This document shows, piece by piece, positions 1-18,241 of a stretch of DNA of 64,000 nucleotides (its first letter is position 1; every line of letters begins with the position of its first letter). The notes beneath the pieces are model-generated. The model was not told the origin of the DNA and did not search any database. It saw only the letters and a list, made by a program, of their open reading frames with translations. The stretch is from NCBI RefSeq assembly GCF_030013595.1, contig NZ_CP122768.1; one strand, given 5' to 3'. Made by a program: the position numbers and the translations under genes. The stretch comes from Escherichia coli (GTDB lineage: Bacteria; Pseudomonadota; Gammaproteobacteria; Enterobacterales; Enterobacteriaceae).

Positions 1-958
1 TTCTCTGCGCATTAGTCGCGGGGAGATTTTCCTTGCTTTGCGCGATCTGAGCAGCAAACTGGTAGTGGAGGAGTTGCAGGAACTGGCGTTAAAAGATGAC
101 TCGCCATTGCTGGATCGTATCATTTCCCATATCGATCAGTTTTTTATCCGCCACCAGAAAAAACTTGAGCGTCTGACTTCGATTGCCATTACCTTGCCGG
201 GAATTATTGATACGGAAAATGGTATTGTACATCGCATGCCGTTCTACGAGGATGTAAAAGAGATGCCGCTCGGCGAGGCGCTGGAGCAGCATACCGGCGT
301 ACCGGTTTATATTCAGCATGATATCAGCGCATGGACGATGGCAGAGGCCTTGTTTGGTGCCTCACGCGGGGCGCGCGATGTGATTCAGGTGGTTATCGAT
401 CACAACGTGGGGGCGGGCGTCATTACCGATGGTCATCTGCTACACGCAGGCAGCAGTAGCCTCGTGGAAATAGGTCACACGCAGGTCGACCCGTATGGGA
501 AACGCTGTTATTGCGGGAATCACGGCTGCCTCGAAACCATCGCCAGTGTGGACAGTATTCTTGAGCTGGCACAGCTGCGTCTCAATCAATCCATGAGCTC
601 GATGTTACATGGACAGCCGTTAACCGTGGATTCATTGTGTCAGGCGGCATTGCGCGGCGATCTGCTGGCAAAAGACATCATTACCGGGGTGGGCGCGCAT
701 GTCGGGCGCATTCTTGCCATCATGGTGAATTTATTTAACCCACAAAAAATACTGATTGGCTCACCGTTAAGTAAAGCGGCAGATATCCTCTTCCCGGTCA
801 TCTCAGATAGCATCCGTCAGCAGGCCCTTCCTGCGTATAGTCAGCACATTAGCGTTGAGAGTACTCAGTTTTCTAACCAGGGCACGATGGCAGGCGCTGC
901 GCTGGTAAAAGACGCGATGTATAACGGTTCTTTGTTGATTCGTCTGTTGCAGGGTTAA
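1..958 (+). CDS. mlc: Mlc (DgsA) ROK-family repressor, 5' end outside window
   Basis: Reading frame open from window start (ORF track 38..958); ROK-type C-terminal sequence with CYCGNHGC zinc motif; synteny with ynfK/clcB. Confidence 0.85.
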   Translation, partial: SLRISRGEIFLALRDLSSKLVVEELQELALKDDSPLLDRIISHIDQFFIRHQKKLERLTSIAITLPGIIDTENGIVHRMPFYEDVKEMPLGEALEQHTGVPVYIQHDISAWTMAEALFGASRGARDVIQVVIDHNVGAGVITDGHLLHAGSSSLVEIGHTQVDPYGKRCYCGNHGCLETIASVDSILELAQLRLNQSMSSMLHGQPLTVDSLCQAALRGDLLAKDIITGVGAHVGRILAIMVNLFNPQKILIGSPLSKAADILFPVISDSIRQQALPAYSQHISVESTQFSNQGTMAGAALVKDAMYNGSLLIRLLQG

Positions 959-1082
959 CATTTTTTAACTGTTCTACCAAAATTTGCGCTATCTCAATTT
1001 GGGCCAGGAAAGCATAACTTAGACTTTCAAGGTTAATTATTTTCCTGGTTTATATTTGTGAAGCATAACGGTGGAGTTAGTG

Positions 1083-1778
1083 ATGCTGAAGCGTTTCTTT
1101 ATTACCGGTACAGACACTTCTGTAGGGAAAACGGTGGTTTCCCGCGCATTGCTACAAGCGTTAGCCTCCCAGGGAAAAACGGTTGCGGGATATAAACCCG
1201 TAGCAAAGGGGAGCAAAGAGACACCCGAAGGGCTGCGTAATAAAGATGCCCTGGTGTTGCAGAGTGTTTCAACCATCGAACTGCCTTATGAAGCAGTTAA
1301 TCCTATCGCGTTAAGCGAAGAAGAAAGTAGCGTGGCGCACAGTTGCCCAATCAATTACACCCTCATTTCAAACGGCCTGGCAAACCTGACCGATAAAGTC
1401 GATCATGTCGTGGTAGAAGGGACTGGCGGCTGGCGCAGTCTGATGAATGATTTACGTCCGCTCTCTGAATGGGTGGTGCAGGAACAACTGCCGGTGTTGA
1501 TGGTTGTCGGTATTCAGGAAGGTTGCATTAATCATGCACTACTAACAGCTCAGGCGATTGCCAACGACGGGCTGCCGCTCATTGGCTGGGTGGCTAACCG
1601 AATCAATCCAGGACTTGCGCATTATGCGGAAATCATTGATGTGCTGGGTAAAAAACTTCCGGCACCGCTCATTGGTGAACTGCCTTATCTGCCGCGCGCC
1701 GAACAGCGTGAACTGGGGCAATACATCCGCCTAGCTATGCTGCGCAGTGTGCTGGCGGTAGATAGAGTCACGGTGTAA
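1083..1778 (+). CDS. ynfK: dethiobiotin synthetase paralog (BioD-like)
   Basis: 231 aa from ATG 1083; N-terminal P-loop GTDTSVGKT; position between mlc and clcB. Confidence 0.85.
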
Positions 1779-2987
1779 CGTCCGCGAAATTACCGACGCA
1801 ATTACGCAGGCAATCAATAAACCGGGGAGTAGCTGATACTCCCCGGTCATTTCACATATCATCAACGTCGACATAATCGGCGCGTGCGTGGTCGCCGCCA
1901 ACAGTGTCGCCATTCCGGTTAATCCGAGTAAAAGCGTAATTTCTTCGCCATCAGGGAACCATAATCCCAGGCTACGACCATACAACATGCCAATGGCAAG
2001 ACCGATAAATAGCGTCGGTGTAAAGACACCACCGGGCGCGCCAGAACCACTACTCGCCAGCACGGCAAACAGTTTACAGAGGAAGATCCCGGCAATGATC
2101 ATTAACAGTGGCGGAGCGGTTAAAAAGGATTGTACGGTGCTATAGCCGTTGCCCCACACTGCAGGTGTGAACAGGGAAAGCAGACCCACGATCAACCCGC
2201 CCAGTGCCAGTTGCCAGGGCGGCGCAAGCTTGAGACTTACAAATTCACGATGACAGGCGTTCATCAACGTTAACAACAGTGGTCCGCACAGACCTGCCAG
2301 CACACCTGTACTGATAATCAGCGCATAGTCACGAGCCTGAACCGTCACTGAGAGTTGTACACTGTAGAGTAACGCGTCGCTATGATTAATCAGATTGCTA
2401 ACCAGCAACGCCACGACGGCGGAAATAATCACCGGGCCGAGAGAGGCCAACATCATAGTGCCAAACAGCACTTCGGCTATAAATAAACTGCCAGCAAGCG
2501 GGGCGCGATAGGCCGCAGCCATTCCCGCCGCAGCTCCACAGGCGATCCATAATTTCCACTCCTGGCGTGGCGTAAAACGTTGGGCAAAACAGGAGGCGGC
2601 AAGGGCAGCTAAAAGAATCATCGCACCTTCGCGACCAATTGCACTGCCGCTGGTTACTACCAGCAGAGAGGCAAGGGATTTAACCAGGCTTGCTGCGTAA
2701 TCAAACTGCCCATCGGTTTGCAACGCTTCCATGTAATCGGTCGGCGCATGAGGGCGTTGCTGGGTAAATTTCTGCCAGCCCATCAGCAACAAACCCGCCG
2801 CCAGTCCGCCGAGCGCCGGAGTTAGCAGCCGTCGCCAGGGGGAAAGATTTGTCGCTGCATTGACCAGACTGCCCGAGTCATTATTGAGGAACAACCACTC
2901 CAGTAGCAGCATCGCATGACGAAACCCGGCAACGGCAAAGGCCGCAAGAATACCGACGACTGTTGCGATAAGCAGACGGCGGAACAT
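1731..2987 (-). CDS. clcB: ClC-type voltage-gated chloride channel
   Basis: 418 aa from MFRRLL (ORF track 1731..3023 has an in-frame upstream extension); polytopic membrane protein with GREG and GVFTP ClC motifs; 3' end overlaps ynfK convergently. Confidence 0.85.
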
Positions 2988-3180
2988 AGTGCGCAGATCC
3001 GGATAGATGTGTAGATGATGCATGAGCAGAAATGGGCAATGAAATACGGGCGACTATTTTGCGGCAAAAGAAGCCAGACGCAAAAGCAGTGCGTGCTTTA
3101 AGAGATAAAAAACGTGACACTGTAACCTATTATTGCCGAATTGCGCCTAATCGACACCATCCGGCAATATTACGGTGATC

Positions 3181-3795
3181 CTATCGAAAGAGTGGTTTAA
3201 CCGCGACAGGAATTAACAGTTGTGATTGCCATTGCGCCAGCGTTAAGCGAGCCAGTTCACCCAGTGCACGGTAGAAAGGGTGTTCTGCTTTTTCGATAAA
3301 AACGTCAAGAAAACGTGTTGACCACGGAAAAAGGTGCCATGCCAGCAATTCTTCGCATTCTGTCTGGCGACCATTCTCCGCCAACCACGCAGCCATCAAC
3401 AGCAGTGAACCAAAATGATCTTCCGGTTCGTTTTGCTTCATTTCAAACTGAATGCCTTTCTCGCGCATCCACTGACGAAGTGCCAATGTTGAATCGCCAA
3501 ACAGCACAGATTCGCGATCCAGCCAGACCGACCCCCACGGCGGTGATGGCAGAGCCCACGGACCGACAAACAAACGCTGCCAGGCCTGGGCGCGAGTCTC
3601 TTCACTCTGTGCCTGAAAAGCCGTCACCAGCGGCGCTAATGACGCTTCTGGTAGAGGCCACTGAGTTTCCCAGCCGTCACGGGTGAGTACCGCAACCAGA
3701 GGTGCGGCTTCCGCACTCTCTGGAGCGTAATAAAACAGCGCGCCCAACACGCGCGCCGCGACAGAAAAATTATCTTGCTGTGAAAAATGGGTCAT
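3181..3795 (-). CDS. dmsD: Tat proofreading chaperone DmsD
   Basis: 204 aa from MTHFSQQDNF; matches recalled DmsD sequence; synteny downstream of ynfH. Confidence 0.85.
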   Translation of the reverse strand: MTHFSQQDNFSVAARVLGALFYYAPESAEAAPLVAVLTRDGWETQWPLPEASLAPLVTAFQAQSEETRAQAWQRLFVGPWALPSPPWGSVWLDRESVLFGDSTLALRQWMREKGIQFEMKQNEPEDHFGSLLLMAAWLAENGRQTECEELLAWHLFPWSTRFLDVFIEKAEHPFYRALGELARLTLAQWQSQLLIPVAVKPLFR

Positions 3796-3837
3796 TCCTA
3801 ACATCCTGAAATGTGCGGGTTGCCCCGCACCAATTTG

Positions 3838-4692
3838 TTAACCTGCAATAGCCATTCCTACCGTCATGTGCAGGCCATAAAAGAGCACACGCCCGATCAT
3901 CTCACCGCCAAGTATGAGGATTAGCCCCAGAACAAGTCCGGCAACGTGAGGTTCACGGCGACGAATGAGCGGACAAAGCCAGCATCCTAGACCTGCGCAT
4001 AACAATACCACACGCCAGACCTGTAAGGAGGCGTAATCTGGTACCAGTGCGCTGGCTTGTTGTACGGATGAGTGAATAGACGCCAGAGACAAACCTTGCA
4101 GCACAATCACCCCGGCACAAGCGATCAGCGCCAGAACGCTAATGATGGCAAAGGGTGTGGTATTAAATGTAATGCGGGCTGCCCGCAGAATTGCGGCAGC
4201 AAGTATTGGACCGCTCAACAATACTGTCAGGAAGAAAGCCAGCGTAGTGTAACCGTTATGCCAGGTTGGCACTGTGTCGATTTGATACACGCAGGTCATC
4301 ATCCAGACGAAAATGACGCCGAGCGCCATGCTGACAAGTAACCAGAGTTTCCCCAACGCTTGCGGCATTTTACCGATGATCGCCACCAGCCACCATAATC
4401 CGCCAACGGCAAAAAATATGGAACCGGCAGCAATCTCGTTACTCAGACCAGAAGCTCCGATTCGATTCAGCGAGTTAAACGCTCGCAGTGGCGATCCCAG
4501 GTGCATGACAGAGGCAATAAACCCGATGCCCATCAACAGCCAGAGGAAAAACATGCCACGGACAATACGCTGACGGTCTGCGTCATTATTGGCGGCGAAC
4601 CAGCCAATTCCGCTAACAATCAGCGCGCCTACTACGCATTGACCCAATACGGTAAAGATAACCAGTGGCCATTCATGCCATCCATTTCCCAT
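3838..4692 (-). CDS. ynfH: DMSO-reductase-type membrane anchor subunit
   Basis: 284 aa from MGNGWHEW (ORF track extends upstream to 4932); start overlaps ynfG stop (ATGA); multi-TM. Confidence 0.85.
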   Translation of the reverse strand: MGNGWHEWPLVIFTVLGQCVVGALIVSGIGWFAANNDADRQRIVRGMFFLWLLMGIGFIASVMHLGSPLRAFNSLNRIGASGLSNEIAAGSIFFAVGGLWWLVAIIGKMPQALGKLWLLVSMALGVIFVWMMTCVYQIDTVPTWHNGYTTLAFFLTVLLSGPILAAAILRAARITFNTTPFAIISVLALIACAGVIVLQGLSLASIHSSVQQASALVPDYASLQVWRVVLLCAGLGCWLCPLIRRREPHVAGLVLGLILILGGEMIGRVLFYGLHMTVGMAIAG

Positions 4693-4693
4693 T

Positions 4694-5290
4694 TTACACT
4701 TCCTCCGGATTAGCCAGATAACCAGTGGTATCGCCGGTCGGGCGGCTGTTGGCGTTAGGTTTGATAACGATATTGGGTTTTGTGAAATGCGCGCGCGGTA
4801 GTGGCGCGACGGCAGCCAGAGTGCCGTGCTTCTGGCGCAGCTCTTCAATTGGACCGAACTCAAGTGCACGCAGCGGGCAGGATTCGACACATATGGGTTG
4901 TTTCCCCTCGGCGACGCGCGAATAACAACCATCGCACTTCGTCATGTGTCCTTTTTCAGCATTGTACTGTGGCGCGCCGTACGGACAAGCCATGTGGCAG
5001 TAGCGGCAGCCGATACAAACATCTTCATCAACCACCACAAAGCCATCTTCACGCTTATGCATTGCGCCGCTGGGGCAGACTTTTGTACATGCGGGGTCAT
5101 CGCAATGGTTACAGGAGATGGAGAGATAATAAGCGAACACGTTCTGGTGCCAGACGCCGCCAGCATATTCATAAATACGGCGGAAACTGACTTCCGGGCC
5201 AAGATCTTTAAAATCTTTGCACGCCAGTTCGCAGGTTTTACAGCCAGTACAGCGGCTGGAATCGATAAAAAATCCATATTGTGTGGTCAT
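4694..5290 (-). CDS. ynfG: DMSO-reductase-type 4Fe-4S ferredoxin subunit
   Basis: 198 aa; four CxxCxxCxxxCP-type cysteine clusters; between ynfF and ynfH. Confidence 0.85.
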   Translation of the reverse strand: MTTQYGFFIDSSRCTGCKTCELACKDFKDLGPEVSFRRIYEYAGGVWHQNVFAYYLSISCNHCDDPACTKVCPSGAMHKREDGFVVVDEDVCIGCRYCHMACPYGAPQYNAEKGHMTKCDGCYSRVAEGKQPICVESCPLRALEFGPIEELRQKHGTLAAVAPLPRAHFTKPNIVIKPNANSRPTGDTTGYLANPEEV

Positions 5291-5300
5291 GGGCTACTCC

Positions 5301-7727
5301 TTAAACCTTTTCGATCTGGACAAGATTGCTGTGCGACGGGTTTCCCTTTGCCAGCGGTGAAGGGCGGTGAGAGGTCAGAATATTGATACTGCCGCCGTGA
5401 TCGACCCGGTCACCAAACATATCCGCTTTAAGCCACGCACCTTGCCCGATGGCGGTAACGCCAGGCAGAATACGCGGAGTCACTTTTGCGGCAATCAGCA
5501 TTTCTCCATTATTGTTAAATACCCGCACGGTATCGCCATGACGGATACCGCGTGCCTGAGCATCAATAGGGTTGATCCACACCTCTTGTGGGCAGGCCTG
5601 CTGTAACACATCAATATTGCCGTAGCTGGAGTGGGTACGCGCTTTGTAGTGGAAGCCCGTTAACTGCAGTGGATAGGTTTTCCGCAGGGGATCGTCCCAG
5701 CCATCAAAACCTGGGGTATACGCAGGAAGGGGATGAATAATTTCATCTTTTTTCAATTCCCAGGTATCCGCAATCGTCGCCAGTCGTTCAGAATAAATTT
5801 CGATTTTCCCCGAAGGTGTTTTCAACGGGTTTGCCTGTGGATCTTCACGGAATGCGCGGAAAGCGACGTAGTGTTCTTCCGGGCATTTTTTCTTAAAGAT
5901 CCCGGTCGTTTTCATCTCCTCGTAGTCGGGCATCTCAGGGTTACGTTCCTTCGTTTTCGCATGGAGATATTTGATCCATTCATGCTGACTGCGACCTTCA
6001 GTAAAGGTTTGATAAACGTCTGGTCCTAAGCGTTTGGCAACTTCACTCAGCATCCAGTAGATGGGTTTGCGTTCAAATTTTGCTGAGGTTGCGGGTTGGG
6101 CGAGGATCACATAGCCCATATTCCCGGCAGATTCGTGAGAGATAAGGTCTTCTTGCTCTGTTGGCATCAGGTCGGGCAACAGGATATCGCAATACTTAGC
6201 CGAGGCAGTCATGAAGTGGTCAATGCCAACAATCATCTCGCACTTGCTGTCATCCTGAAGCACCTCATGGGTGTGATTGATGTCGCCATGTTGATTGATC
6301 AATGTGTTACTGGCGTAGCACCATAAAAACTTGATGGGGACATCCAGTTTTTCTTTTCCACGAACACCATCACGGGTCGCGGTCATTTCCGTACCGTGGT
6401 CGATGGCATCTGTCCATGTAAAGACGGAAATCTGCGTTTTAACAGGATTCTCAAGCATCGGGAACCATTCTACCCCCAGATCCCAGCTACCTTCGCGTAC
6501 ACCTGAGTTGCCGCCGTTTATGCCGACGTTACCGGTGAGAACGGAAAGCATGGCAATAGCGCGGGACGTTTGTTCGCCGTTGGAGTGTCGTTGTGGCCCC
6601 CAACCCTGACAAATATAAGCAGGTTTTGCTGAACCGATCTCTCGTGCCAACTGGATAATTTTTTCTGCCGGGATGCTGGTGATTTTTGCTGCCCATTCCG
6701 GCGTTTTAGCTATGCCGTCAGGCCCTTCGCCCAGAATATAGGCTTTATAATGCGCGTTACGTGGTGCGTTGGCGGGCAGCGTTTTTTCATCGTAACCAAC
6801 ACAATATTTGTCGAGAAATGGCTGATCGACCATGTTTTCAGTAATCAGTACCCAGGCAATCGCACAGGCCAGTGCGCCATCGGTGCCTGGGCGAATTGGC
6901 AGCCATTCATCTTCACGCCCGGCAGCAGTGTCGTTATAACGTGGATCGATGACGATCATGCGTGCGTTTGAACGTTCTCGGGCTTGCTCGACGTAGTAAG
7001 TGACACCACCGCCGCTCATCCGGGTTTCTGCCGGGTTATTTCCGAACATAACGACCAGTTTCGTATTGGCTATATCATCCGGGCTGTTGCCATCATTGGC
7101 ACCGAACATATAACTCATTGCGGCACTGATTTGAGCGGTACTGTAGCTGCCATAGCGACTGAGAAAACCACCGCAAGAGTTCATCAGACGGTACGGGACG
7201 TTCGAGTTGGTGATGTTTCCGCCATCTACGCCTGTTCCGTACAGGACATGTACAGCCTCATTGCCGTAATCTTTAAGGATCCGCCGAAGATTATCACTGA
7301 TGGTATCCAGGGCTTCATCCCAACTTATCCGTTCAAATTTACCTTCACCGCGCTTGCCGACGCGCTTCATGGGATATTTCAACCTGTCAGGATGATTCAT
7401 CCGTCGGCGGATAGAGCGCCCGCGTAAACATGCCCGAACCTGATGATTACCGTAGACGTCGTCACCTGTCGTATCAGACTCCACCCAGTACACGGTGTCA
7501 TCTTTCACATGCAAACGTAACAGACAGCGGCTCCCGCAGTTAACGGTGCAGGAACTCCAGACCGCTTTCTCTTCTACCGGTGTCTCTGCCGCTCGGACCA
7601 TTTGGGAAAATGGCAGAGTGAAAGCACTGCTTGCCAGCGCAAGACTGCCAAGTGCGGAGGTTTTCATCAGACTTCTACGGCTGATTTCAGCCTTCATGAG
7701 CGCCTCTGTGGTATGGATTTTCATCAT
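5301..7727 (-). CDS. ynfF: molybdopterin oxidoreductase catalytic subunit (DmsA paralog) with Tat signal
   Basis: 808 aa; twin-arginine motif SRRSLMK; N-terminal CxxCxxxC cluster; intact paralog of the split ynfE. Confidence 0.9.
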   Translation of the reverse strand: MMKIHTTEALMKAEISRRSLMKTSALGSLALASSAFTLPFSQMVRAAETPVEEKAVWSSCTVNCGSRCLLRLHVKDDTVYWVESDTTGDDVYGNHQVRACLRGRSIRRRMNHPDRLKYPMKRVGKRGEGKFERISWDEALDTISDNLRRILKDYGNEAVHVLYGTGVDGGNITNSNVPYRLMNSCGGFLSRYGSYSTAQISAAMSYMFGANDGNSPDDIANTKLVVMFGNNPAETRMSGGGVTYYVEQARERSNARMIVIDPRYNDTAAGREDEWLPIRPGTDGALACAIAWVLITENMVDQPFLDKYCVGYDEKTLPANAPRNAHYKAYILGEGPDGIAKTPEWAAKITSIPAEKIIQLAREIGSAKPAYICQGWGPQRHSNGEQTSRAIAMLSVLTGNVGINGGNSGVREGSWDLGVEWFPMLENPVKTQISVFTWTDAIDHGTEMTATRDGVRGKEKLDVPIKFLWCYASNTLINQHGDINHTHEVLQDDSKCEMIVGIDHFMTASAKYCDILLPDLMPTEQEDLISHESAGNMGYVILAQPATSAKFERKPIYWMLSEVAKRLGPDVYQTFTEGRSQHEWIKYLHAKTKERNPEMPDYEEMKTTGIFKKKCPEEHYVAFRAFREDPQANPLKTPSGKIEIYSERLATIADTWELKKDEIIHPLPAYTPGFDGWDDPLRKTYPLQLTGFHYKARTHSSYGNIDVLQQACPQEVWINPIDAQARGIRHGDTVRVFNNNGEMLIAAKVTPRILPGVTAIGQGAWLKADMFGDRVDHGGSINILTSHRPSPLAKGNPSHSNLVQIEKV

Positions 7728-7784
7728 TACTCACTTATTGCTTTTCAAACAAAATGTCATGCCAGAATTTATGGTTGTAGTGGG

Positions 7785-8810
7785 TTATATTTTTTCGATC
7801 TCGACCAGATTAGTGTGCTGCGGGTTTCCCTTCGCCAGTGGTGAAGGGCGCAGAGTGGTTAGCGTATTCACACAGCCGCCATGGTCGATTTTATCGCCAG
7901 ACATATTGGCCTCGTGCCAGGCTCCCTGGCCCATAGCGCTAACCCCAGGGAGAATGCGTGGTGTTACTTTGGCTGGTAGCCGAACTTCGCCACGATGGTT
8001 AAACACCCGCACCATATCGCCGTTGGCAATCCCACGTTTCTGTGCATCTATAGGGTTGATCCACACCTCCTGACGGCAGGCTTCCTTCAGGACATCAATA
8101 TTGCCGTAGGTCGAGTGGGTACGGGATTTGTAATGGAAACCAAACAGTTGCAGTGGGAAGGTTCTACGTTCAGGGGAGTCCCAGCCTTCAAAGGTTGAGG
8201 CATAAACTGGCAGTGGGCTTATCACTTCATCTTTTTCCAGTTCCCAGGTACGGGCAATTTCCGCCAGCTTGCTGGAATAAATTTCAATCTTACCGGAAGG
8301 CGTTTTAAGTGGATTTGCCTCGGGGTCGTCACGAAATGCTTTGTAGGCGACAAAATGACCATTGGGATCTTTACGCTTATAGATACCCATTTTTTTCAGT
8401 TCGTCGTAAGACGGTAACGCCGGATCTTTGGCAAGCATTTTGGCGTACAGATGTTGTAACCATTGTTCCTGCGTGCGACCTTCTGTGAACTTTTGATAGA
8501 CGTCAGGTCCAAGACGTTTCGCGACTTCACTCAGGATCCAGTAAATCGGTTTGCGTTCGAATTTTTCGCTGGTGACTGGCTGAAGGAAAATGAGATATCC
8601 CATGTTACCTGCGTAGTCGTTAGGAATAATATCTTCCTGCTCAACGGTCATCAGGTCTGGCAGCAGAATGTCGGCATATTTTGCCGATGAGGTCATAAAG
8701 TTTTCGATGACCACAATCATTTCGCATTTCGATTCGTCCTGCAGAATTTCATGCGTTTTGTTGATGTCAGAATGCTGATTAACCAGGGTATTTCCCGCGT
8801 AGTTCCAGAT
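7785..8810 (-). pseudogene. ynfE: ynfE C-terminal fragment (gene split by insertion at 8811)
   Basis: In-frame ynfE sequence from codons I-W-N-Y (8799-8810) to stop at 7785; ORF track upstream extension 8811-8951 is element DNA read in the wrong context. Confidence 0.85.
8801..8810. repeat. left copy of 10-bp direct repeat AGTTCCAGAT flanking the ynfE insert (att core or target duplication)
   Basis: Identical 10-mer at 18242-18251; both copies encode ynfE residues IWN. Confidence 0.8.
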
Positions 8811-8876
8811 GGACTCCACTGTCAGACGGATGGACGGACTTGAAGTAGTTGACTCAACGCTACTTAAGGTCCTGAT

Positions 8877-10485
8877 ATGACTGACATTAACTATGATAAT
8901 ACTGTATATCCATCCAGCTCTTTCTCTGGGTCTCCCTATCTGTATGGGCAAGTCTACACCTCAAGTCCTGACACAAGGCTGACACAAATCAATCTACTCA
9001 GCGTAGCTAAGCCTCAGTTAGTCCGTAGAGCCAATGGTCGATATACTATCCGCTTCAGACTCAAGGGACAGACCACACCGTTTCTTTCAGTATCGACCCG
9101 AAGCACAGACAGGAGAGTAGCCACAATGCGTCAGAGAGAGCTTGCAGCCACAGCTAAGGCCTTCATGTTGGATAGGCCTGAAGTCTCACTACAGGAGCTT
9201 ACAGAGCATCTCCGGTCTATGGCTGAGCAGTTCCTGACAGACGCTAGTGACGATTACTGGAATGGACTTGAGGTCGCTACTTTGGTGGACGAGAAGTCCA
9301 ACCTGAAGGAGCTAGCCGCTACGCAAGCCTTGAGTCTGGACCAGCAGAAGGGCATAAGGTTAGCGCTTGAAGTCCTGACCGCAGCACAGCAGAGGGTAGA
9401 TACTGGTGATACGTCCAGTCTAATCAAGCTGATTGGTGGTGGCGTAAGCCAGCTTACTGATGGAGATGACAATAACCTTACTAATAACTCAACTATATGC
9501 GACTCTACGTTGATTCTGAGGAACGAGCAGGGGGTCAGCCCGCAAGTATTCACGAGAGAGCGCCAACCATCTGTAGTTTTTTCAAGCCTAGTGTCCTCAC
9601 TGCTGGCTGAGAAGGTCCAGACCCTGAAGTCCTCCAGCTACAAGGACCTGTCGTCCTCACTGAATACCGTCTCTCGGTTTCTGCCTGAAGATATGGACCT
9701 GATGTCCCGCTCTGAGTGGCTGGCAGTGAGGGACGCTATGCTGGCTGCTGAGGTGAGACCATCGACAATCAACAAGCTGCTGACCAAAGCGAAGATGTGT
9801 CTCGATTATGGCCTGATGAATGGGCAACTTGAGGGCCGCAACCCTATTGAACGGATGAAGCTGACCAAGGATACCGACTCCAAGCGCAGAGCGTTCACAG
9901 ACGAGGAGCTGGAGAGACTTCTGGTCCGTGTTGAGGCTGAGTATCAGTTCACACGACACACGGCTCACACGACCTCTGAGGCCCGTAGATGGGCGTCTCT
10001 GGTGTCTGTGGTCACTGGCGCGAGGTCTGCTGAGGTCTGCCACCTGACTAAACGTGACGTTGTAACCTTGGACAATGGACTGGTCTGTATCGACATCAAT
10101 GAAGATGGGGACGGGAAGTCTGTGAAGAACAAACATTCAGTCCGACTTGTGCCGTTAACCGATGGGGCCTGTGGTTTCAGCCTGAAGTCCTTCCTCAAAT
10201 GGGTAGACACTCAGCCTGCTGATGGTCCCCTCTTTGGTATGACTCCGAGTGCCTACTCTAGTTGGTTTAACTCTAGGGTCCTGACTGAGGCCCTAGGAGA
10301 CGCTGAGAACGTTTCTCCACAGTCTGAGACATTGGCTGGCGACCCGAATGAAAGAGCGTGGAGTCAATCTGGTGGACGCTCAAGGCATCTTAGGTCACAG
10401 CAGTCAGTCCATTACGTATGACCTGTACGGGAAAGGACACGCTGTTGGTAGGCTGGCTGAGGTGCTGAAGACAGCTTTACTTTAA
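8877..10485 (+). pseudogene. tyrosine recombinase/integrase, apparently frameshifted near 10297-10330
   Basis: N-terminal arm-binding-like segment (GRYTIRFRLKG...STRSTDRRVA); catalytic domain residues in frame A up to 10421; conserved HSLRHWLATRM...LGHSS...YDLYGKGH C-terminus is in the +1 frame ending at 10485. Confidence 0.65.
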
Positions 10486-10644
10486 GTAGGAAGACCCAAG
10501 GTGGAGACCATATACGGCTTGATGGTTGAGACCTTGGGTCACTGAAGTCTGACTGAAGTTAGGGAGGGTGATAATAATCATAATCCCTCCTGACTATAGG
10601 CCCACTGGTTCGCCTTCGGCTGTCCGACTCTAAGTCTGTCTGTG

Positions 10645-10776
10645 GTCTTATTTAAACTGGTTCCCTAACTCAGGTCCTCCAACTTGGTGTCTTATTTAAA
10701 CTGGTTCCCTAACTCAGGTCCTCCAACTTGGTGTCTTATTTAAACTGGTTCCCTAACTCAGGCCCCTCCAAATTTC
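10645..10776 (+). repeat. 44-bp tandem direct repeat, about 2.7 copies (candidate iterons/origin or regulator binding array)
   Basis: Unit GTCTTATTTAAACTGGTTCCCTAACTCAGGTCCTCCAACTTGGT at 10645-10688 and 10689-10732, third copy diverges after about 30 bp. Confidence 0.8.
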
Positions 10777-10792
10777 GTTGTCTGTCAGCGAC

Positions 10793-10818
10793 TTAAATAT
10801 CCCCTCACCTTAGAAGAG
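10793..10818 (+). promoter_or_regulatory. phage single-subunit-RNAP-type promoter P1 (class A, CCCCTCAC upstream)
   Basis: TTAAATATCCCCTCACCTTAGAAGAG; T7-supergroup -17..+6 architecture, predicted +1 G at 10813. Confidence 0.55.
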
Positions 10819-10833
10819 TTTAGGGTTCAGACC

Positions 10834-10857
10834 CTTAACTATCACCTTAGGAGAGAC
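10834..10857 (+). promoter_or_regulatory. phage single-subunit-RNAP-type promoter P2 (class B, AACTATCAC upstream)
   Basis: CTTAACTATCACCTTAGGAGAGA; predicted +1 G at 10850; 45 bp upstream of ORF 10902. Confidence 0.55.
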
Positions 10858-10901
10858 GGGCCGTCCTCCACCCAATCAAAACCTTAAGAGGAGGACCATA
10901 C

Positions 10902-11402
10902 ATGGCTATTAAAATTCAGTGCTACACCGAGTCCGACAATGCGGCTTTCTTCGGTGACGATTCCGACCTCCAGCACCAGCTACCAGCACCGACATATGAC
11001 GAACCTAAGGCCCGCACAGGTAAGCCTCCTGTGGTCATCGACAACCGGGCTGTCCGTGCGTGGCTGATTGAGACTGGGTGTCTCTCCTATACGCAGCTTG
11101 TTGAGGCGTACCCGTGGGCTGACGATGTGTTCACAGGACTCTCACGGGCTACCAGTGGCGCTGTCGGTGCTGGACTCCCGGTATCTAAGGCGTACCTGTT
11201 CTCTGCCTTATATGGCACCAACGACATCTTCTCCCGTAACACAGCCAAATCCTACGCTGACATCACTGGGCGTTCACCGTCTCCTCGCTACCTGCGCCAC
11301 GTCAATAGCGTGCTTCAGGCTACGGCTGTGAATCTGGCTAAGGTTCTGAAGGACCGAGGGGATTTCACATGGTGGGATTACAACGATCAGTGCCTGTCCT
11401 GA
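10902..11402 (+). CDS. hypothetical protein, first gene downstream of P1/P2
   Basis: 166-aa ORF with strong RBS AAGAGGAGG; no family recognised. Confidence 0.6.
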   Translation: MAIKIQCYTESDNAAFFGDDSDLQHQLPAPTYDEPKARTGKPPVVIDNRAVRAWLIETGCLSYTQLVEAYPWADDVFTGLSRATSGAVGAGLPVSKAYLFSALYGTNDIFSRNTAKSYADITGRSPSPRYLRHVNSVLQATAVNLAKVLKDRGDFTWWDYNDQCLS

Positions 11403-11424
11403 GAGCCGCGCCAGCTCTGGGCTG

Positions 11425-11448
11425 GAATACCCCCTCACTATAGGGACA
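11425..11448 (+). promoter_or_regulatory. phage single-subunit-RNAP-type promoter P3 (class A; T3-like CC at -11/-10)
   Basis: GAATACCCCCTCACTATAGGGACA; 13/13 match to T7 consensus from -9 to +4 (CTCACTATAGGGA). Confidence 0.7.
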
Positions 11449-11451
11449 CCC

Positions 11452-11477
11452 CCTAAACTATCACTATAGGGGGGACC
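11452..11477 (+). promoter_or_regulatory. phage single-subunit-RNAP-type promoter P4 (class B)
   Basis: CTAAACTATCACTATAGGGGGGACC; TCACTATAGGG core. Confidence 0.65.
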
Positions 11478-11712
11478 AACCTTGCCTCTGCTTCTGATGC
11501 GTCAGAACACGCGAGGTCCTCCCGACATTAAGTATTCTCCTAAGTAATCAAGGCCCGTGACCGCCTCTGACAGACCTCCTGTATCGACCTCCAGCTCGTT
11601 AGCGTTCTTTAGTCGTCTCGGTTAGTAGGTAACCGGCTCATTTAAACCGTCTGGTCTGTTTCCTCCGGCTCTACAAAAATAATGTCCATCATTTTTTAAT
11701 GGACACTATCGT

Positions 11713-12360
11713 ATGAAACACCGGACCTGGATCACTGAAGCTTTACGTCTTCACTTTGAAGAACATTTACCCCGGGTTGTGGCCGGGCGTCGCCTGGGTG
11801 TACCAAAATCAACAGTTTGTAGTATGTTCGTGCGCTTTCGGAGAGCTGGCCTTTCGTGGCCTTTGCCCGCAGGCATGTCGGAGCAGGAACTTGATGCCTG
11901 CCTTTACGGACAATTTTCCACGGTACCAGTCGTACGTCCTGAAAGCACCGTTATATCCGAAGCCCCCGTGGTAAAAAAACGTCCCCGGCGGCCCAACTTC
12001 CCTTATGAGTTTAAAATCGCCTTAGTGGAGCAGTCACTGCAGCCCGGAGCCTGTGTGGCGCAGATCGCCCGGGAAAACGGAATCAACGATAACCTGCTCT
12101 TCAACTGGCGCCATCAATACCGGAAAGGTGGCCTGCTGCCTTCCGGAAAAAATATGCCGGCACTGCTTCCCGTGACGTTAACGCCGGAGCCGGATAATAA
12201 AATCCCGGCCCCCGCACAGGAACCAGAGCAGATAAATACACCGTCCGACAGTCTGTGTTGTGAGCTGGTTCTGCCGGCCGGAACTCTCAGGCTTAAAGGT
12301 AAACTGACGCCGGCGTTATTACAGACACTTATCCGCGAAATAAAAGGGAGCAGCCACTGA
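11713..12360 (+). CDS. IS66 accessory protein (orf1/TnpA-like)
   Basis: 215 aa, first ORF of IS66 triad; identical to copy-2 ORF. Confidence 0.8.
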   Translation: MKHRTWITEALRLHFEEHLPRVVAGRRLGVPKSTVCSMFVRFRRAGLSWPLPAGMSEQELDACLYGQFSTVPVVRPESTVISEAPVVKKRPRRPNFPYEFKIALVEQSLQPGACVAQIARENGINDNLLFNWRHQYRKGGLLPSGKNMPALLPVTLTPEPDNKIPAPAQEPEQINTPSDSLCCELVLPAGTLRLKGKLTPALLQTLIREIKGSSH

Positions 12361-12707
12361 TGATATCTCTCCCTGCAGGTTCGCGTATCTGGCTGGTTGC
12401 AGGTATCACCGATATGCGAAATGGCTTTAACGGCCTGGCATCAAAAGTTCAGAACGTCCTGAAGGATGACCCGTTCTCCGGACACCTGTTCATCTTCCGC
12501 GGACGCCGGGGTGACCAGATAAAAGTGTTGTGGGCTGACAGTGACGGACTGTGCCTCTTCACCAAACGCCTGGAGCGGGGCCGCTTCGTCTGGCCAGTCA
12601 CCCGTGACGGCAAGGTGCACCTTACTCCGGCTCAGTTATCCATGCTTCTTGAAGGTATCAACTGGAAGCACCCGAAACGAACGGAACGCGCTGGAATCCG
12701 CATATAA
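12360..12707 (+). CDS. IS66 Orf2 (TnpB-like)
   Basis: 115 aa, overlapping start with preceding stop (ATGA); typical IS66 orf2. Confidence 0.8.
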   Translation: MISLPAGSRIWLVAGITDMRNGFNGLASKVQNVLKDDPFSGHLFIFRGRRGDQIKVLWADSDGLCLFTKRLERGRFVWPVTRDGKVHLTPAQLSMLLEGINWKHPKRTERAGIRI

Positions 12708-12726
12708 CCCGTTGTAAAGTGAGGAT

Positions 12727-14298
12727 ATGGACACCTCACTTGCTCATGAGAACGCCCGCCTGCGGGCACTGTTGCAGACGCAACAGGACACCATCCGCCA
12801 GATGGCTGAATACAACCGCCTGCTCTCACAGCGGGTGGCGGCTTATGCTTCCGAAATCAACCGGCTGAAGGCGCTGGTTGCGAAACTGCAACGTATGCAG
12901 TTCGGTAAAAGCTCAGAAAAACTTCGTGCAAAAACCGAACGGCAGATACAGGAAGCACAGGAGCGAATCAGCGCACTTCAGGAAGAAATGGCGGAAACGC
13001 TGGGTGAGCAATATGACCCGGTACTGCCATCCGCCCTGCGCCAGTCTTCAGCCCGTAAACCGTTACCGGCCTCACTTCCCCGTGAAACCCGGGTTATCCG
13101 GCCGGAAGAGGAATGCTGTCCTGCCTGTGGTGGTGAACTCAGTTCTCTGGGATGTGATGTGTCAGAGCAACTGGAGCTTATCAGCAGCGCCTTTAAGGTT
13201 ATCGAAACACAACGTCCGAAACAGGCCTGTTGCCGGTGCGACCATATCGTACAGGCACCAGTACCTTCAAAACCCATTGCACGCAGTTATGCCGGAGCGG
13301 GGCTTCTGGCCCATGTTGTCACCGGGAAATATGCAGACCATCTGCCGTTATACCGCCAGTCAGAAATATACCGTCGTCAGGGAGTGGAGCTGAGCCGTGC
13401 CACACTGGGGCGCTGGACAGGTGCTGTTGCTGAACTGCTGGAGCCGCTGTATGACGTCCTGCGCCAGTATGTGCTGATGCCCGGTAAAGTCCATGCTGAT
13501 GATATCCCCGTCCCGGTCCAGGAGCCGGGCAGCGGTAAAACCCGGACAGCCCGGCTGTGGGTCTACGTCCGTGATGACCGTAACGCCGGTTCACAGATGC
13601 CCCCGGCGGTCTGGTTCGCGTACAGTCCGGACCGGAAAGGTATCCATCCACAAAATCACCTGGCCGGTTACAGCGGTGTGCTTCAGGCCGATGCTTACGG
13701 TGGTTACCGGGCGTTATACGAATCCGGCAGAATAACGGAAGCCGCGTGTATGGCTCATGCCCGGAGAAAAATCCACGATGTGCATGCAAGAGCGCCCACC
13801 TACATCACCACGGAAGCCCTGCAGCGTATCGGTGAACTGTATGCCATCGAGGCAGAGGTCCGGGGCTGTTCAGCAGAACAGCGTCTGGCGGCAAGAAAAG
13901 CCAGAGCCGCGCCACTGATGCAGTCACTGTATGACTGGATACAGCAACAGATGAAAACACTGTCGCGTCACTCAGATACGGCAAAAGCGTTCGCATACCT
14001 GCTGAAACAGTGGGATGCACTGAACGTGTACTGCAGTAATGGCTGGGTGGAAATCGACAACAACATCGCAGAGAACGCCTTACGGGGAGTGGCCGTAGGC
14101 CGGAAAAACTGGATGTTCGCGGGTTCCGACAGCGGTGGTGAACATGCGGCGGTGTTGTACTCGCTGATCGGCACATGCCGTCTGAACAATGTGGAGCCAG
14201 AAAAGTGGCTGCGTTACGTCATTGAACATATCCAGGACTGGCCGGCAAACCGGGTACGCGATCTGTTGCCCTGGAAAGTTGATCTGAGCTCTCAGTAA
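12727..14298 (+). CDS. IS66-family DDE transposase (Orf3/TnpC)
   Basis: 523 aa with leucine-zipper-like N-terminus, CxxC...CxxC zinc motif and DDE region. Confidence 0.85.
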
Positions 14299-14582
14299 AT
14301 ATCAATACGGTTCTGACGAGTCGCTTACGTTAGTAGCTCGTCTACTCACTACATTGGCTTAAGTCTATCACCGCTCACCATCTGGAGTCCTTACAGCTCG
14401 TCCTGACATGCGGTCTCACCTTATATGCACATGGAGAACATGGCCACTCCAGACCAACACTAATCAACATTAACCCTATTCACTTTCGTTAAGCATTTTT
14501 TGGTGGGTCCGTTTGGATGCATTGAATAGGTGCGGACTCCACGTGGAGACAGAAAGTGCTTTACTAAAGGAGCATCCTTTAT

Positions 14583-14972
14583 ATGACTATTAAATCCATC
14601 GTTATCAACGGTAAGACCATCCTGTCTACACCTAACGCCATCAATGAGGGTGTCTGGTTCGACATGCTTGAGGTCCATCAAGCTGCTGGCTTGCCTGCTA
14701 ACAAGACGTTCTCACAGTGGCGCAGCCGACAGTCTCGTGCATTAGAAGAGGCTGGAGAGGTGTCGTTTGACAGTGTACAGAAGACCCTGTGTGGCAGCTT
14801 TGTGGCAGTGCTGGCCTACCTTATGTGGGCGGACCTTACTCTCTGGCTGGCGGTGGTTCGTTACGTTGCGTCTGAGACTATCGGCGTCCTGCCTGACCGC
14901 TTCAAGTCTATCGACGGTGATAACCCCGAGTTAGAAATGTCAGAGGATAACAGCGAGTGGGAGGACTTCTAA
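14583..14972 (+). CDS. KilA-N domain protein (short)
   Basis: 129 aa; N-terminal motif WFDMLEVHQAAGLPANK...WLAVVRYV resembling KilA-N; strong RBS AAGGAG. Confidence 0.55.
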   Translation: MTIKSIVINGKTILSTPNAINEGVWFDMLEVHQAAGLPANKTFSQWRSRQSRALEEAGEVSFDSVQKTLCGSFVAVLAYLMWADLTLWLAVVRYVASETIGVLPDRFKSIDGDNPELEMSEDNSEWEDF

Positions 14973-14973
14973 G

Positions 14974-15714
14974 ATGACCATGAGCCAGCTTGAAGCATTA
15001 CCTATCGTCATCGAGGGTCATTCATTCATCTGCAACGACCAGCGCATGTGGAACCTGAACGAGATTCACCGAGTGTTAGGTCTTCCAGCAAGCAAGATGC
15101 CGTCTGAGTGGAATAACAAGATTCGCACACAACTTGACCGCTCCGGAAATTTCCGGACCGTGAATGGTGACGGCGGTGGTACATGGGCGACCGAGGCTGG
15201 GACCGTGGCTTATGCTATGTGGGTCTCTACAGATTTCTACCTGATGGTCATCAATGCTTTCATCTTTATGCGTAACGACGCAATCGTCCGAGAGCGTGTA
15301 GCGGTCAAACAGGCTGACGAGGCTAACGCTAACCTCTCCATCGCAGCACCTAAGGCAGACATCTTTGACGGTCGTCTGACCAATGGTGGCTCTGTTCCGT
15401 GGAACTGGGCGTGTAAATCTTTGGGTCTTGCCCCGATGAAACTGAAAGAGGGCTTGAAGCGCTCCGGTAAGTTCGTCCAGAAGTGGAACCCTGACAGTTA
15501 CGCCGACGAGCTTCGACCTCAGGAGAAGGCGTTCAGTATTGGACTATTCGTCACTAAGTCAGTCATGGGTAAAGACACATGGCAGGTGACAGCTAAAGGC
15601 TACGCATGGATGCAGGGGAACGCCCAGAAGTGGAGAGAGCTAATAGCTGATGGTGACCGCTTAAAGGCTGCTGAGCGTCGAGCACAGAAGCGTCTTAACC
15701 GTGGAGGTAAGTAG
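14974..15714 (+). CDS. KilA-N domain protein with C-terminal extension
   Basis: 246 aa; MWNLNEIHRVLGLP...NGDGGGTWATEAGTVAYAMWVSTDFYLMVI typical of KilA-N; start 2 nt after preceding stop. Confidence 0.6.
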   Translation: MTMSQLEALPIVIEGHSFICNDQRMWNLNEIHRVLGLPASKMPSEWNNKIRTQLDRSGNFRTVNGDGGGTWATEAGTVAYAMWVSTDFYLMVINAFIFMRNDAIVRERVAVKQADEANANLSIAAPKADIFDGRLTNGGSVPWNWACKSLGLAPMKLKEGLKRSGKFVQKWNPDSYADELRPQEKAFSIGLFVTKSVMGKDTWQVTAKGYAWMQGNAQKWRELIADGDRLKAAERRAQKRLNRGGK

Positions 15715-15716
15715 TC

Positions 15717-15941
15717 ATGGCTATGATTGACCCTCGTACACCTATCGGCAAAGCGACCCTTCGTTACCGTGGTCTGCCTACACGTCATCTGCTGTCCCTG
15801 CTGAGACTTGGAGTCGAAGACCCCGAACGCCCGTACTACAGTCGAGACGAGCTAATAGCTATGTTGGTGGACCGTGATTTAGACAATCAGTTACGCCGAG
15901 CCTTTGCGAAGTCTAGCGCAGCTAGGGAACTGGAGTCCTGA
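15717..15941 (+). CDS. hypothetical protein
   Basis: 74-aa ORF, start 3 nt after preceding stop, same strand. Confidence 0.45.
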   Translation: MAMIDPRTPIGKATLRYRGLPTRHLLSLLRLGVEDPERPYYSRDELIAMLVDRDLDNQLRRAFAKSSAARELES

Positions 15942-16146
15942 ACCTTATGGGGCAGAAAAACCGCCGCATAAACCTATCGTCTGCTGACCGAAGTTTCGAC
16001 GCATTGAGCCAGACGGAAAAGTTTTCCTGCTGGTAAACCACCTTAATTTAAACACCTTTTGAGAATGACCGATGCGGGGAGACCCGTAGGCATAACTGTG
16101 TCTGCGATACCGATAGTTCTCACCTTCTCAATAGGAGTACTACCTT

Positions 16147-16638
16147 ATGTTATTCAACAACAACGACTGGAAACTATCAGTCACCGACATCAATCCCTAT
16201 GAAAATACTGTGAGTCTGGACGGTCAGTCCTATCCGCTGTCTCTGGCGATTAAGACCCTGATTCCGGGCTACCTGTCAGGCTTACCGTCCACCAGCCGCG
16301 AGGCGATGGAGTTACTGGAAGCTCTGGCTGAAGCTGGCGTGTCCATTGGCAACTTCTTCAGTAATGACCTGATGACCGCCTATGGTCGCCGCCAGCAGAA
16401 CAAGCGAGCCGAAGCTGAGCGTATTGCTAAAGAGCAGCGCATTCAGGCTGAGCGTATGCGTGAAGAGAACATGACTGATGCAGAGTGGCAGAAAGAGCTA
16501 CAGCGCCGTGAACAGGTCAAAGCTGAACGCCGGACCTATGGTGAGCACCTCCGCAGTGCTACCCATTCCGCTGGGCGCTCCCGTGCTTCTATGGTCGCTG
16601 ACATTGAGTCCACGGACAACTGGATGGACAGCCTCTAA
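16147..16638 (+). CDS. hypothetical charged coiled-coil protein (scaffold-like?)
   Basis: 163 aa; RBS AGGAG; C-terminal K/R/E-rich helical segment. Confidence 0.5.
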   Translation: MLFNNNDWKLSVTDINPYENTVSLDGQSYPLSLAIKTLIPGYLSGLPSTSREAMELLEALAEAGVSIGNFFSNDLMTAYGRRQQNKRAEAERIAKEQRIQAERMREENMTDAEWQKELQRREQVKAERRTYGEHLRSATHSAGRSRASMVADIESTDNWMDSL

Positions 16639-16704
16639 GACACAGACACACAAGTGGTCCTGACCTGATGTCGGGACCCACAGTATCCAAACTAATTTAG
16701 GAGA

Positions 16705-17700
16705 TTGATTATTATGACGATTAAAGACGCTTTCCAGTTCGGCATTGAGCCAGTACGTATCAGCGACACCGACAACATTCAGATTAACGAAGGTTTGCCA
16801 ACTAACGCAGACCCGCAGGTCTATGCCCTCCAGTTAGCTAAGACGGTTAAGGCTATGCTGAACGGTGTACTTAAAGACGCTCAAGAGAACATCCCGTTCC
16901 CTGTAGAAGTCCTGCCGACCCGCAATAGCCTGCCTACTCCAATCATTGCTCACACTCTGGCTGATCGCTCTGTGGTCGTTCCTGTCCGTGGTGGTAAGCG
17001 ACCTGAAGTCGTGACCGTTCCGTCTGGACAAGAAATCGTGGTCGAACCAATCGAGCAGGCTATTCTCATCTCTGAGCAGACCAAGCTCTGGGACGCCAAG
17101 TCATCCACCGGATTCACTCAGGGCACACTTCAGCAGGACGCTATGAACATCTGTGAGAATGTGGTCCGTACCATCAACGCTCGCATGGTCGACGTTCTGG
17201 AGTCCTCCAAACTGTTGAAGACCGTAGAGCTGCCAGTCCTGACTGGAAGCCTGACCACTAAGGCAGACGCTATCATGGACGCTCTGTTTGAGAACACCGA
17301 GTCCTCTTTCGGCTCTGAAGTGTCTGATTACGGCATCATCGCCCATGAGTCCCAACTGAAAGCGCTGTCCCGTCTGGCAGCTAAACAGGGCTTCTCTGGT
17401 GGAGACGCTATCGTGGATATGCTGGGTACCGACATCGCCTATTACAACGGTGAAGACAAGGGTGTATTCATGCTGGCTAAACGCTTCACGGCCCTGAGCT
17501 TCGGCTGCTTCCGTCACGACGGTGAGAATATTACGGTCGTCCTTTCACGTGATGGCGACTCTCAGTCCCACGACTTGGAAATCCTCGGTAAAGTGTTCGT
17601 TGTCGCTGAAGCTGCTACGACCATCAAGATGGGCACTGGCTCAGCTACTGCCGTCCTGCCTGTAGTCAAACGCCTGAAGTTCACCAAGACCGAAGCGTAA
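16705..17700 (+). CDS. hypothetical 331-aa protein (possible virion/structural protein; unverified)
   Basis: Long ORF with RBS AGGAG directly downstream of coiled-coil ORF; no motif recognised. Confidence 0.5.
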   Translation: MIIMTIKDAFQFGIEPVRISDTDNIQINEGLPTNADPQVYALQLAKTVKAMLNGVLKDAQENIPFPVEVLPTRNSLPTPIIAHTLADRSVVVPVRGGKRPEVVTVPSGQEIVVEPIEQAILISEQTKLWDAKSSTGFTQGTLQQDAMNICENVVRTINARMVDVLESSKLLKTVELPVLTGSLTTKADAIMDALFENTESSFGSEVSDYGIIAHESQLKALSRLAAKQGFSGGDAIVDMLGTDIAYYNGEDKGVFMLAKRFTALSFGCFRHDGENITVVLSRDGDSQSHDLEILGKVFVVAEAATTIKMGTGSATAVLPVVKRLKFTKTEA

Positions 17701-17844
17701 GACCAATGGGTAAGAGGTAAGTCTGGACTGAATATCAGCAGGACTTCAGGTGGTGGCCTGTCACTGTGATTAACTAACTACGGTCTGGACCAATGGTCTG
17801 GGCCTTATTACTGGTATGGTAGTATACAGGCGAAGGAGGACCCA

Positions 17845-18000: not shown

Positions 18001-18241
18001 GTTTGGACTCACAGTGGGACCGATGATTTCTGACAGAAAAATGTGAATGACCATCTAATACATTAAGCCAGCAGACTTCCCCCCATAGTCCCGCCTCAAG
18101 TCCAGACCGAGGCCACCGGGGGTCCTGACCAGCCGTCTAGACATCCCGTCTAATGACACAAGTCTGGCACAAAGCCTGACACAAAGTCCTTGACTCAATG
18201 CAGGACCTCAGGCCTACTAAGGGTCCGCTTCAAGTCCTTGA

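Follow-up and report, generated by a model that had tools for sequence, protein, structure and literature searches.

Attachment-site structure at the left junction of an integrative element in ynfE of Escherichia coli, with candidate arm-type repeats

The DNA analyzed here, called the window, is a 64,000-nucleotide stretch of Escherichia coli contig NZ_CP122768.1. Positions 8801-8990 of the window are attL, the left junction of a ~6.6-kb integrative element that interrupts ynfE. Site-specific integration of the element into this gene is essentially certain. Copies of the octamer TGRCACAA lie on both arms of the attachment site, and these probably serve as arm-type sites for the tyrosine integrase that the element encodes.

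The element is bounded by two copies of an 11-bp core, and it splits ynfE into two fragments:

8801-8811, no strand assigned: attL copy of the core AGTTCCAGATG, which is common to attP and attB; the empty site, intact ynfE, has one copy.
18242-18252, no strand assigned: attR copy of the core AGTTCCAGATG, based on the same core match and the rebuilt empty site.
8812-18241, + strand: integrated element, 9,430 bp here and 6,730 bp without the insertion sequence (IS) nested in it.
7785-8811, - strand: 3' fragment of ynfE, the left flank.
18242-19652, - strand: 5' fragment of ynfE, the right flank, whose frame enters the element for 47 nt and then meets a stop.

Exactly two copies of AGTTCCAGATG occur in the window, where ~0.02 would be expected by chance per 64 kb. 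An initial annotation of this DNA had placed a 10-bp direct repeat at the junctions; the repeat is present at both, and it is one base pair longer. The same annotation had proposed that attB be reconstructed from the two junctions and compared with intact alleles. When the flanks are joined through one core copy, the resulting empty site matches annotated intact ynfE from many E. coli genomes at 100% identity over 218 nt. Because this empty site carries a single copy of the core, the repeat is the 11-bp sequence shared by element and target. In 5,117 of 5,426 E. coli genomes, nothing interrupts this site. The junction sequences predicted for the excised form and for the restored gene are CAAGTCCTTGAAGTTCCAGATGGACTCC (attP) and CGCGTAGTTCCAGATGAACTT (attB), respectively. 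Across relatives, the identity block at the junctions measures 11 to 15 bp. Blocks of 13-15 bp in some relatives result from polymorphism in the bases adjoining the core: position +12 of attL is G or the attB base A, and position -1 of attR is A or the attB base T. The element does not restore ynfE after insertion, and the frame of the 5' fragment ends inside it.

The int-proximal 1.7 kb of the element is present in 149 of 5,426 complete E. coli genomes, with 88-98% identity. Loci were fetched from ten E. coli genomes spanning this range, two Leclercia, one Citrobacter and one Kluyvera. In all 15 loci from these genera, ynfE or its orthologue is interrupted at one and the same position. The relatives are 6,471-6,771 bp between cores; the window copy reaches 9,430 bp because ISCro1 has inserted into it. 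Elements that are 88-98% identical and have exchanged cargo genes reside in ynfE sequence that is almost invariant. Such divergent elements in near-identical flanks point to repeated independent integrations, not to one inherited insertion. The exact empty site, the single position and the presence of a tyrosine integrase as the sole recombinase uphold the earlier proposal of site-specific integration into ynfE rather than transposition.

Five octamers are present, two on the left arm and three on the right:

8969-8976, + strand: left-arm copy 1, TGACACAA, 158 bp from the core, in int codons 31-34.
8980-8987, + strand: left-arm copy 2, TGACACAA, 169 bp from the core.
18154-18161, + strand: right-arm copy 1, TGACACAA, 88 bp before the core.
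18165-18172, + strand: right-arm copy 2, TGGCACAA, the G variant, 77 bp before the core.
18177-18184, + strand: right-arm copy 3, TGACACAA, 65 bp before the core.

All five were found where they had first been noticed, in the same orientation. Their starts are 11 bp apart in the left pair, and 11 and 12 bp apart in the right triple. The total number of TGRCACAA words in the window is unremarkable (8 observed versus 5.8 expected). However, in 3,000 simulations using a second-order Markov model of the element's own composition, a same-strand pair within at most 25 bp arose once, and a triple within at most 40 bp never arose.

The octamers of the right arm are conserved among ynfE-type elements, whereas the spacers between them are variable (GTC, GGC or AGC in the first; AGCC, GGC or AGAA in the second). 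One ynfE-type element has a 24-bp insertion that splits right copy 1, and another has a 2-bp insertion within right copy 3. The Kluyvera right arm retains two degenerate copies (aGACACAA ggc TGACACAt), and the rest of that arm is unalignable. The left pair spans int codons 31-37, and its two copies are read in different frames. The 31 nt that hold this pair (int nt 86-116) contain 0 variable sites, compared with 24 in the first 117 nt. The neighboring codons vary freely, and many of the 24 variable sites are non-synonymous. The lack of any variable site at nt 86-116, synonymous positions included, therefore indicates that the constraint is on the DNA and not on the peptide. The initial annotation had suggested looking for the same repeats in related elements; the 15 ynfE elements of four genera retain them, and distant elements keep the layout. 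Layout, conservation and clustering thus agree with the proposal that the octamers are integrase arm-type sites, a role that the sequence makes probable.

Three distant relatives could be placed in contigs among the 4,342 integrase homologues found in a library-wide search. The element termed L015, whose integrase is 41% identical, has the same gene order and is inserted adjoining smg, with core CAGCGACAACGTCAA. Its left arm carries TGTCACAA/TGCCACAA at +155/+167, and its right arm carries TGTCACAA/TGACACAT/TGATACAA at -102/-91/-79. L023 (integrase 35% identical) has core TGTGGTTAAACCAG and GTCACAA-like copies, three on the left and two on the right. L021, from a marine metagenome (integrase 38% identical), has the word CTGTTAGAAA instead: one pair, with copies 11 bp apart, at the beginning of int and another two copies in the distal arm. 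A 2+3 or 3+2 layout is thus kept with different cores, and the word drifts with integrase distance.

The integrase is encoded directly inside the left junction:

8877-10421, + strand: int, open reading frame of a tyrosine integrase and sole recombinase gene, with the frame shifted by a 2-bp deletion between 10317 and 10318.

This reading frame matches a PHROG integrase (6e-24), and the integrase of an intact relative, L003, matches Pfam PF00589 (1.2e-13). In a 29-sequence alignment, relatives down to ~30% identity retain residues R387, K421, H486, R489, H512 and Y522. Relative to the copies L001 and L005, the deletion in the window copy removes the HxLRH box, H and the catalytic Y, which are the last four of the six catalytic residues. 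Because int is frameshifted, and because an IS has inserted, the window copy is probably unable to excise by itself and probably locked in place. The closest E. coli copy, L001 (PM4-5), has a CGA to TGA nonsense change at int codon 75, in the N-terminal domain; as a result, PGAP annotates its integrase as a protein of 453 aa starting at a downstream ATG. Both copies are decaying.

PGAP mostly annotates a long form of the integrase (526-543 aa), which starts 65 bp within the element, and the frame is open from this ATG in 14 of the 15 loci. Intact alleles include WP_176478112 (strain 47-1826) and WP_172452803 (NCTC11023). Indels directly 3' of the left octamer pair are 6 and 15 nt, so that the frame is kept. 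An N-terminal block, RR.G.Y..R.R..G...SL.T...A, is common to relatives and starts at ~residue 47. The first 43 residues are restricted to the ynfE lineage and are poorly conserved. The N-terminal domain covers ~residues 44-105. Its AlphaFold model has a pLDDT of 90 and a strand-strand-strand-helix topology, and this predicted structure weakly resembles the arm-binding domain of lambda Int. A profile search of the PDB with the domain returned nothing meaningful.

Additional repeats lie between the core and the octamers:

8836-8845, + strand: GGACTTGAAG, left arm of a 10-bp inverted repeat, 24 bp from the core, invariant in ynfE-type elements.
18228-18237, - strand: GGACTTGAAG, right arm of the inverted repeat, 4 bp from the core, overlapping a putative core-type site, AAGTCCTTG.
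8849-8860, + strand: left copy of a second direct repeat, TTGACTCAACGC followed by CTACTTAAGG, conserved in all loci.
18190-18201, + strand: right partner of the second direct repeat, TTGACTCAATGC, which pairs with the motif at 8849.

The inverted repeat, also part of the initial annotation, is indeed present near both ends. It is invariant in all 14 ynfE-type elements that have both ends, and it has no counterpart in L015 or L023. Enrichment of GTCC, AGTCC and AAGTCC words across the element (4- to 10-fold) weakens the statistics of this repeat. The second direct repeat has the general form TTGACTCAAYGC followed by CTACTWAAGG and is found in both arms. The best dyad in the rebuilt attP is AGTCCTTG [AAGTTCCA] GATGGACT, or the same arms flanking AGTTCC, and attB shares GATGAACT on the right side of this dyad. 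We infer that AAGTCCTTG and GATGGACT are core-type sites, forming an imperfect inverted pair that flanks the stretch in which strands are exchanged.

These features are best accommodated, we believe, if positions 8801-8990 are the attL of a lambda-type integrase with the octamers as its arm sites, and we consider this explanation as a whole the probable one. The element would have inserted into ynfE by conservative site-specific recombination, using its own lambda-type tyrosine integrase. Strand exchange would occur in the left part of the core (approximately AGTTCCA), between AAGTCCTTG and GATGGACT. The five octamers would be bound by the strand-strand-strand-helix domain at the integrase N terminus. 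Three lie 65-88 bp before the core, in the int-distal arm, and two 158-169 bp after it, in the int-proximal arm, all of them helix-phased. Together they would assemble the intasome and give the reaction its directionality. The left pair, along with a phage-like junction motif described below, is overprinted on the first 43 codons of int.

The junction motif is one of several features reminiscent of phages of the T7 group:

11422-11479, + strand: two sites resembling phage RNA polymerase promoters, CCCTCACTATAGGGAC and CTATCACTATAGGGGGGAC; the second matches Kayfunavirus promoters.
18008-18016, + strand: CTCACAGTG, identical to nt 2-10 of the T7 genome terminus.
18081-18108, + strand: CCCCATAGTCCCGCCTCAAGTCCAGACC, 24/28 identical to nt 27-54 of the K1F terminal repeat.
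8924-8945, + strand: CTCTGGGTCTCCCTATCTGTAT, resembling the right-hand end of the T7, T3 and K1F terminal repeats (the concatemer junction), within the leader codons of int.

The sequence at 11453-11479 is identical at 25-26 of 27 positions to annotated promoters of K1F-like phages (Kayfunavirus), which occur in 4-6 copies per phage genome. The relatives also have promoter-like sites, and these differ in type: L015 has TAATGCGACTCACTATAGGGAGA, the T7-type consensus; L020 has AATTAACCCTCACTAAAGGGAGA, the exact T3 consensus; and L013 has GGTACACTATAGGGAGA. Such sites are located at 3615 and 4044 of L001, at 10818 and 11519 of L013, at 5518 and 6294 of L015, and 3' of int in L020. A terminal-repeat end resembling CTCTGGGTCTCCCTATCTGTAT is annotated in phage EcoDS1 as a concatemeric junction, and in L015, L020 and L023, too, CCYTATCTGT separates the core from the left repeats. 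The matches to T7-group genome ends are short and colinear, and in the excised form they would bracket ~371 bp holding the core and the right triple. All of these helper-specific cis signals, both the phage promoters and the genome-end motifs, were detected by short sequence matches only. Without its IS, the element (6.7 kb) contains 2 GATC and 0 CCWGG sites, versus ~20 and ~10 expected from the flanking DNA. Counts are similarly low in L001, L002, L013 and L015 (0-3 GATC and 0-1 CCWGG per 6.5 kb). T7 likewise avoids GATC and CCWGG. GTCC words have four times the flank frequency in the element, a bias that its enterobacterial relatives share.

The promoters, the terminal-repeat-like motifs and the near absence of GATC and CCWGG sites suggest that the element is a satellite of T7-like phages of the K1F type. 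The chances seem about even that it is one of a still undescribed family of satellites, ~6.5 kb in size, that use virulent T7-group phages as helpers; their genes would be read by the helper, their attP would lie within a mimic of the terminal repeat and concatemer junction, and ~six copies would be packaged per capsid. If so, integration would split a packaging signal that excision rebuilds; the genes of the element would be transcribed from promoters for the helper RNA polymerase; and a helper capsid would be full with ~six copies joined head to tail (6 x 6.6 kb, ~40 kb). In the literature that was searched, the coverage of which is incomplete, we found neither enterobacterial satellites of T7-type phages nor the present arm sites described. 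No excised or virion-derived copy of the element was found among public contigs. A scan of viral contigs for octamer pairs returned mostly chance matches, and the only element among them, L138, is in the integrated form. BLAST searches with the right end and with a 331-aa protein of the element gave no match in 50,697 phage records, which also lack the element as a whole.

Several observations weigh against arm-type sites read by a lambda-type integrase. The integrase matches no Pfam arm-binding family, and no gene for an excisionase (Xis-like protein) was recognized by PHROGs, NCBIfam or Pfam. The left octamer pair sits within the int reading frame rather than upstream of it. The excised attP junction was not found in viral or metagenome contigs in four scans. 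In Kluyvera, both core copies read AGTTCCAGAAG, the same as Kluyvera ynfE over 15 bp. Core position 10 has the host-type base in each copy, which needs a co-adapted attP or heteroduplex repair. Finally, two features of the T7-like context fit a different role for the octamers. The att region of the excised form would be bracketed by CTCACAGTG, CCCCATAG...AAGTCCAGACC (24/28 to K1F) and CTCTGGGTCTCCCTATCTGTAT at the position of a concatemer junction, and the short-repeat arrays of EcoDS1 and CR44b hold one or two AGTCACAAC words.

In that role, the octamers would be packaging-associated short repeats read by helper machinery, in the manner of the CCTAAAG-type arrays found on either side of the terminal repeat in T7-group phages. 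The left pair does start 31 bp past the junction-like boundary, which is the site of the left short-repeat array in this group. However, the words used by the helpers themselves (CCTAAAG in T7 and T3; CCWWMAG in K1F) are absent from the arms of the proposed satellite, and TGNCACAA is absent from the left ends of T7, T3 and K1F. Moreover, TGNCACAA-like words are kept in elements that have T7-, T3-, K1F-type and other promoters; the word therefore follows the integrase lineage and not the type of helper. The distances of the octamers to the recombination core are conserved, and the right-arm copies lie inside, not outside, the span that resembles a terminal repeat. We rank packaging repeats second to arm-type sites and regard them as quite unlikely. 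The octamers were also considered as T7 primase sites (GTGTC, read on the other strand), and this candidate was dropped, as relatives with TGTCACAA lack them.

Alternatively, the octamers might be bound by another protein of the element, such as a recombination directionality factor, an iteron-binding replication initiator or a repressor of int. The element encodes several conserved small proteins without assigned function, the overlap of the left pair with the 5' end of int would suit a regulator, and helically spaced direct repeats are typical of iterons and Xis sites too. On the other hand, the recurrence of one word on each arm, at set distances from the core, is the pattern of arm-type sites, whereas Xis-type sites usually occupy one arm. 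Three 44-bp repeats (10645-10776) and the phage promoters, all 3' of int, are better candidates for an origin, and the additional N-terminal domain of the integrase, which is predicted to resemble a DNA-binding domain, needs a target. Binding by another protein is thus unlikely.

That the element is a transposon, with the core repeat as target-site duplication and GGACTTGAAG as terminal inverted repeats, is highly improbable. A direct repeat does flank the element, an inverted repeat is found near both ends, and in the Kluyvera copy both direct repeats have host-type sequence over 15 bp. But no transposase is present besides that of the nested ISCro1, which has its own 8-bp duplication; 15 of 15 copies examined in four genera share an identical position; the GGACTTGAAG arms are neither terminal nor symmetric, lying 4 and 24 bp inside the ends; and relatives at other sites have a core that matches their own target. 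It is just as improbable that the octamers are a by-product of skewed oligonucleotide composition or coding constraint, despite strong enrichment of GTCC, AGTCC and TGAC words in the element and a left pair inside a reading frame, since simulated sequences of the same composition almost never yield such clusters, the left copies use different frames in a stretch that is invariant at synonymous positions while its neighbors vary, and the right-arm copies are non-coding with variable spacers.

As an attachment site, the structure has a textbook layout. Like lambda attP and Int (and those of HP1, P2, Tn916 and the HPI island), it has a core shared with attB and arm words that are distinct from the core on both arms. 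As in lambda, attP spans ~340 bp, and two arm words lie on one side and three in tandem on the other. The integrase is also predicted to have an additional N-terminal strand-strand-strand-helix domain, which weakly resembles that of lambda Int. The words of the relatives, AGTCACAAG, resemble the lambda arm consensus, C/AAGTCACTAT. The ynfE element differs from lambda in that it inserts into the middle of a protein-coding gene and inactivates that gene without restoring it; its int-proximal sites are inside the int coding sequence, and no Xis was recognized; its integrase is 526-543 aa long, with a long helical insert; and its attP appears to be embedded in a mimic of a T7-phage terminal repeat. 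This T7-like context is the part worth following up.

The element has already been catalogued by TIGER (2020). The TIGER-mapped Eco892.7.ynfE and Sfl13.8.ynfE are integrative elements that disrupt ynfE, and the paper that lists them (Mageeney et al. 2020, PMC7192596) counts the gene as a new candidate for "regulated gene integrity". They share with our element the target, a comparable size (7-8 kb), a tyrosine integrase and the unrestored break in the molybdopterin domain; the searchable text of that paper does not describe arm sites, core-type sites or a link to T7-like phages. The nearest concept is that of marine VEIMEs (PMC9618062) and PICMIs (PMC10803314), which are small satellites packaged as concatemers and, like the ynfE element, are minimal integrative elements of 5-10 kb with an integrase and no recognizable capsid or terminase genes. 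At about one sixth of the size of a T7-type genome, the ynfE element would fit concatemer packaging. Unlike VEIMEs and PICMIs, it is hosted by Enterobacteriaceae and has promoters of the type used by single-subunit phage RNA polymerases, as well as T7-group terminal-repeat motifs. Unlike PICMIs, it lacks alpA, fis, primase and terS. Hallmark genes of PICI, P4-like, PLE and PICMI satellites (alpA, primase-replicase, terS, sid/psu/delta and capsid-remodelling genes) were not found among its proteins with PHROG, NCBIfam and Pfam.

Exact attL, attR, attP and attB sequences, along with candidate arm sites, are now defined for an integrase that uses a fixed 11-bp site in a dispensable E. coli gene. 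The ynfE-targeting integrase could serve as an integration tool, and with the same att sequences the on/off control proposed for ynfE can be put to a direct test. Should the element prove to be a satellite of virulent T7-like phages, a new helper group would be added to those of known satellite families, and the overlap of att with genome-end motifs would show a way of coupling excision to packaging.

The remaining content of the element includes the nested IS:

11629-14328, + strand: ISCro1 (IS66 family; tnpA, tnpB and tnpC), inside the element, flanked by an 8-bp duplication, GTTAGTAG; L005 shows the empty site.

Genes that are constant across relatives are int, a gene for a 163-aa protein (DUF6971 in one relative) and one for a ~330-aa protein. 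The central part of the element (14583-15941 in the window) is a swap zone, which encodes KilA-N/Rha proteins here and AP2-domain proteins, HNH endonucleases or other hypothetical proteins in L002, L004, L007, L009 and L010. Besides the integrase and the KilA-N/Rha-type protein, no element protein matched a PHROG, NCBIfam or Pfam family, and no capsid, terminase or polymerase genes were recognized among them with these collections. Scans of both arms for sigma-70 promoters were uninformative. The tandem 44-bp repeats noted above lie just 3' of int and 5' of the phage-type promoters; two are identical, the third is 80% identical, and the array may be an origin or iteron-like sequence.

In E. 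coli 47-1826 (L003, locus positions 1-9100), the 3' part of ynfE and ynfF-ynfH are replaced by a Mu-like or P2-like tail gene cluster. The cluster directly adjoins attL on the left and marks a second rearrangement of this locus. Integrase relatives also reside within 9-10 kb elements, namely L021 and L022 (marine metagenome) and L147. The last of these has no clear host junctions, a T7 gp4-like Pfam match and four ACCACTATAGGGAG promoters. A protein of 1,342 aa with an SLT domain, similar to T7 gp16 in size and domain, is encoded by one of these relatives.

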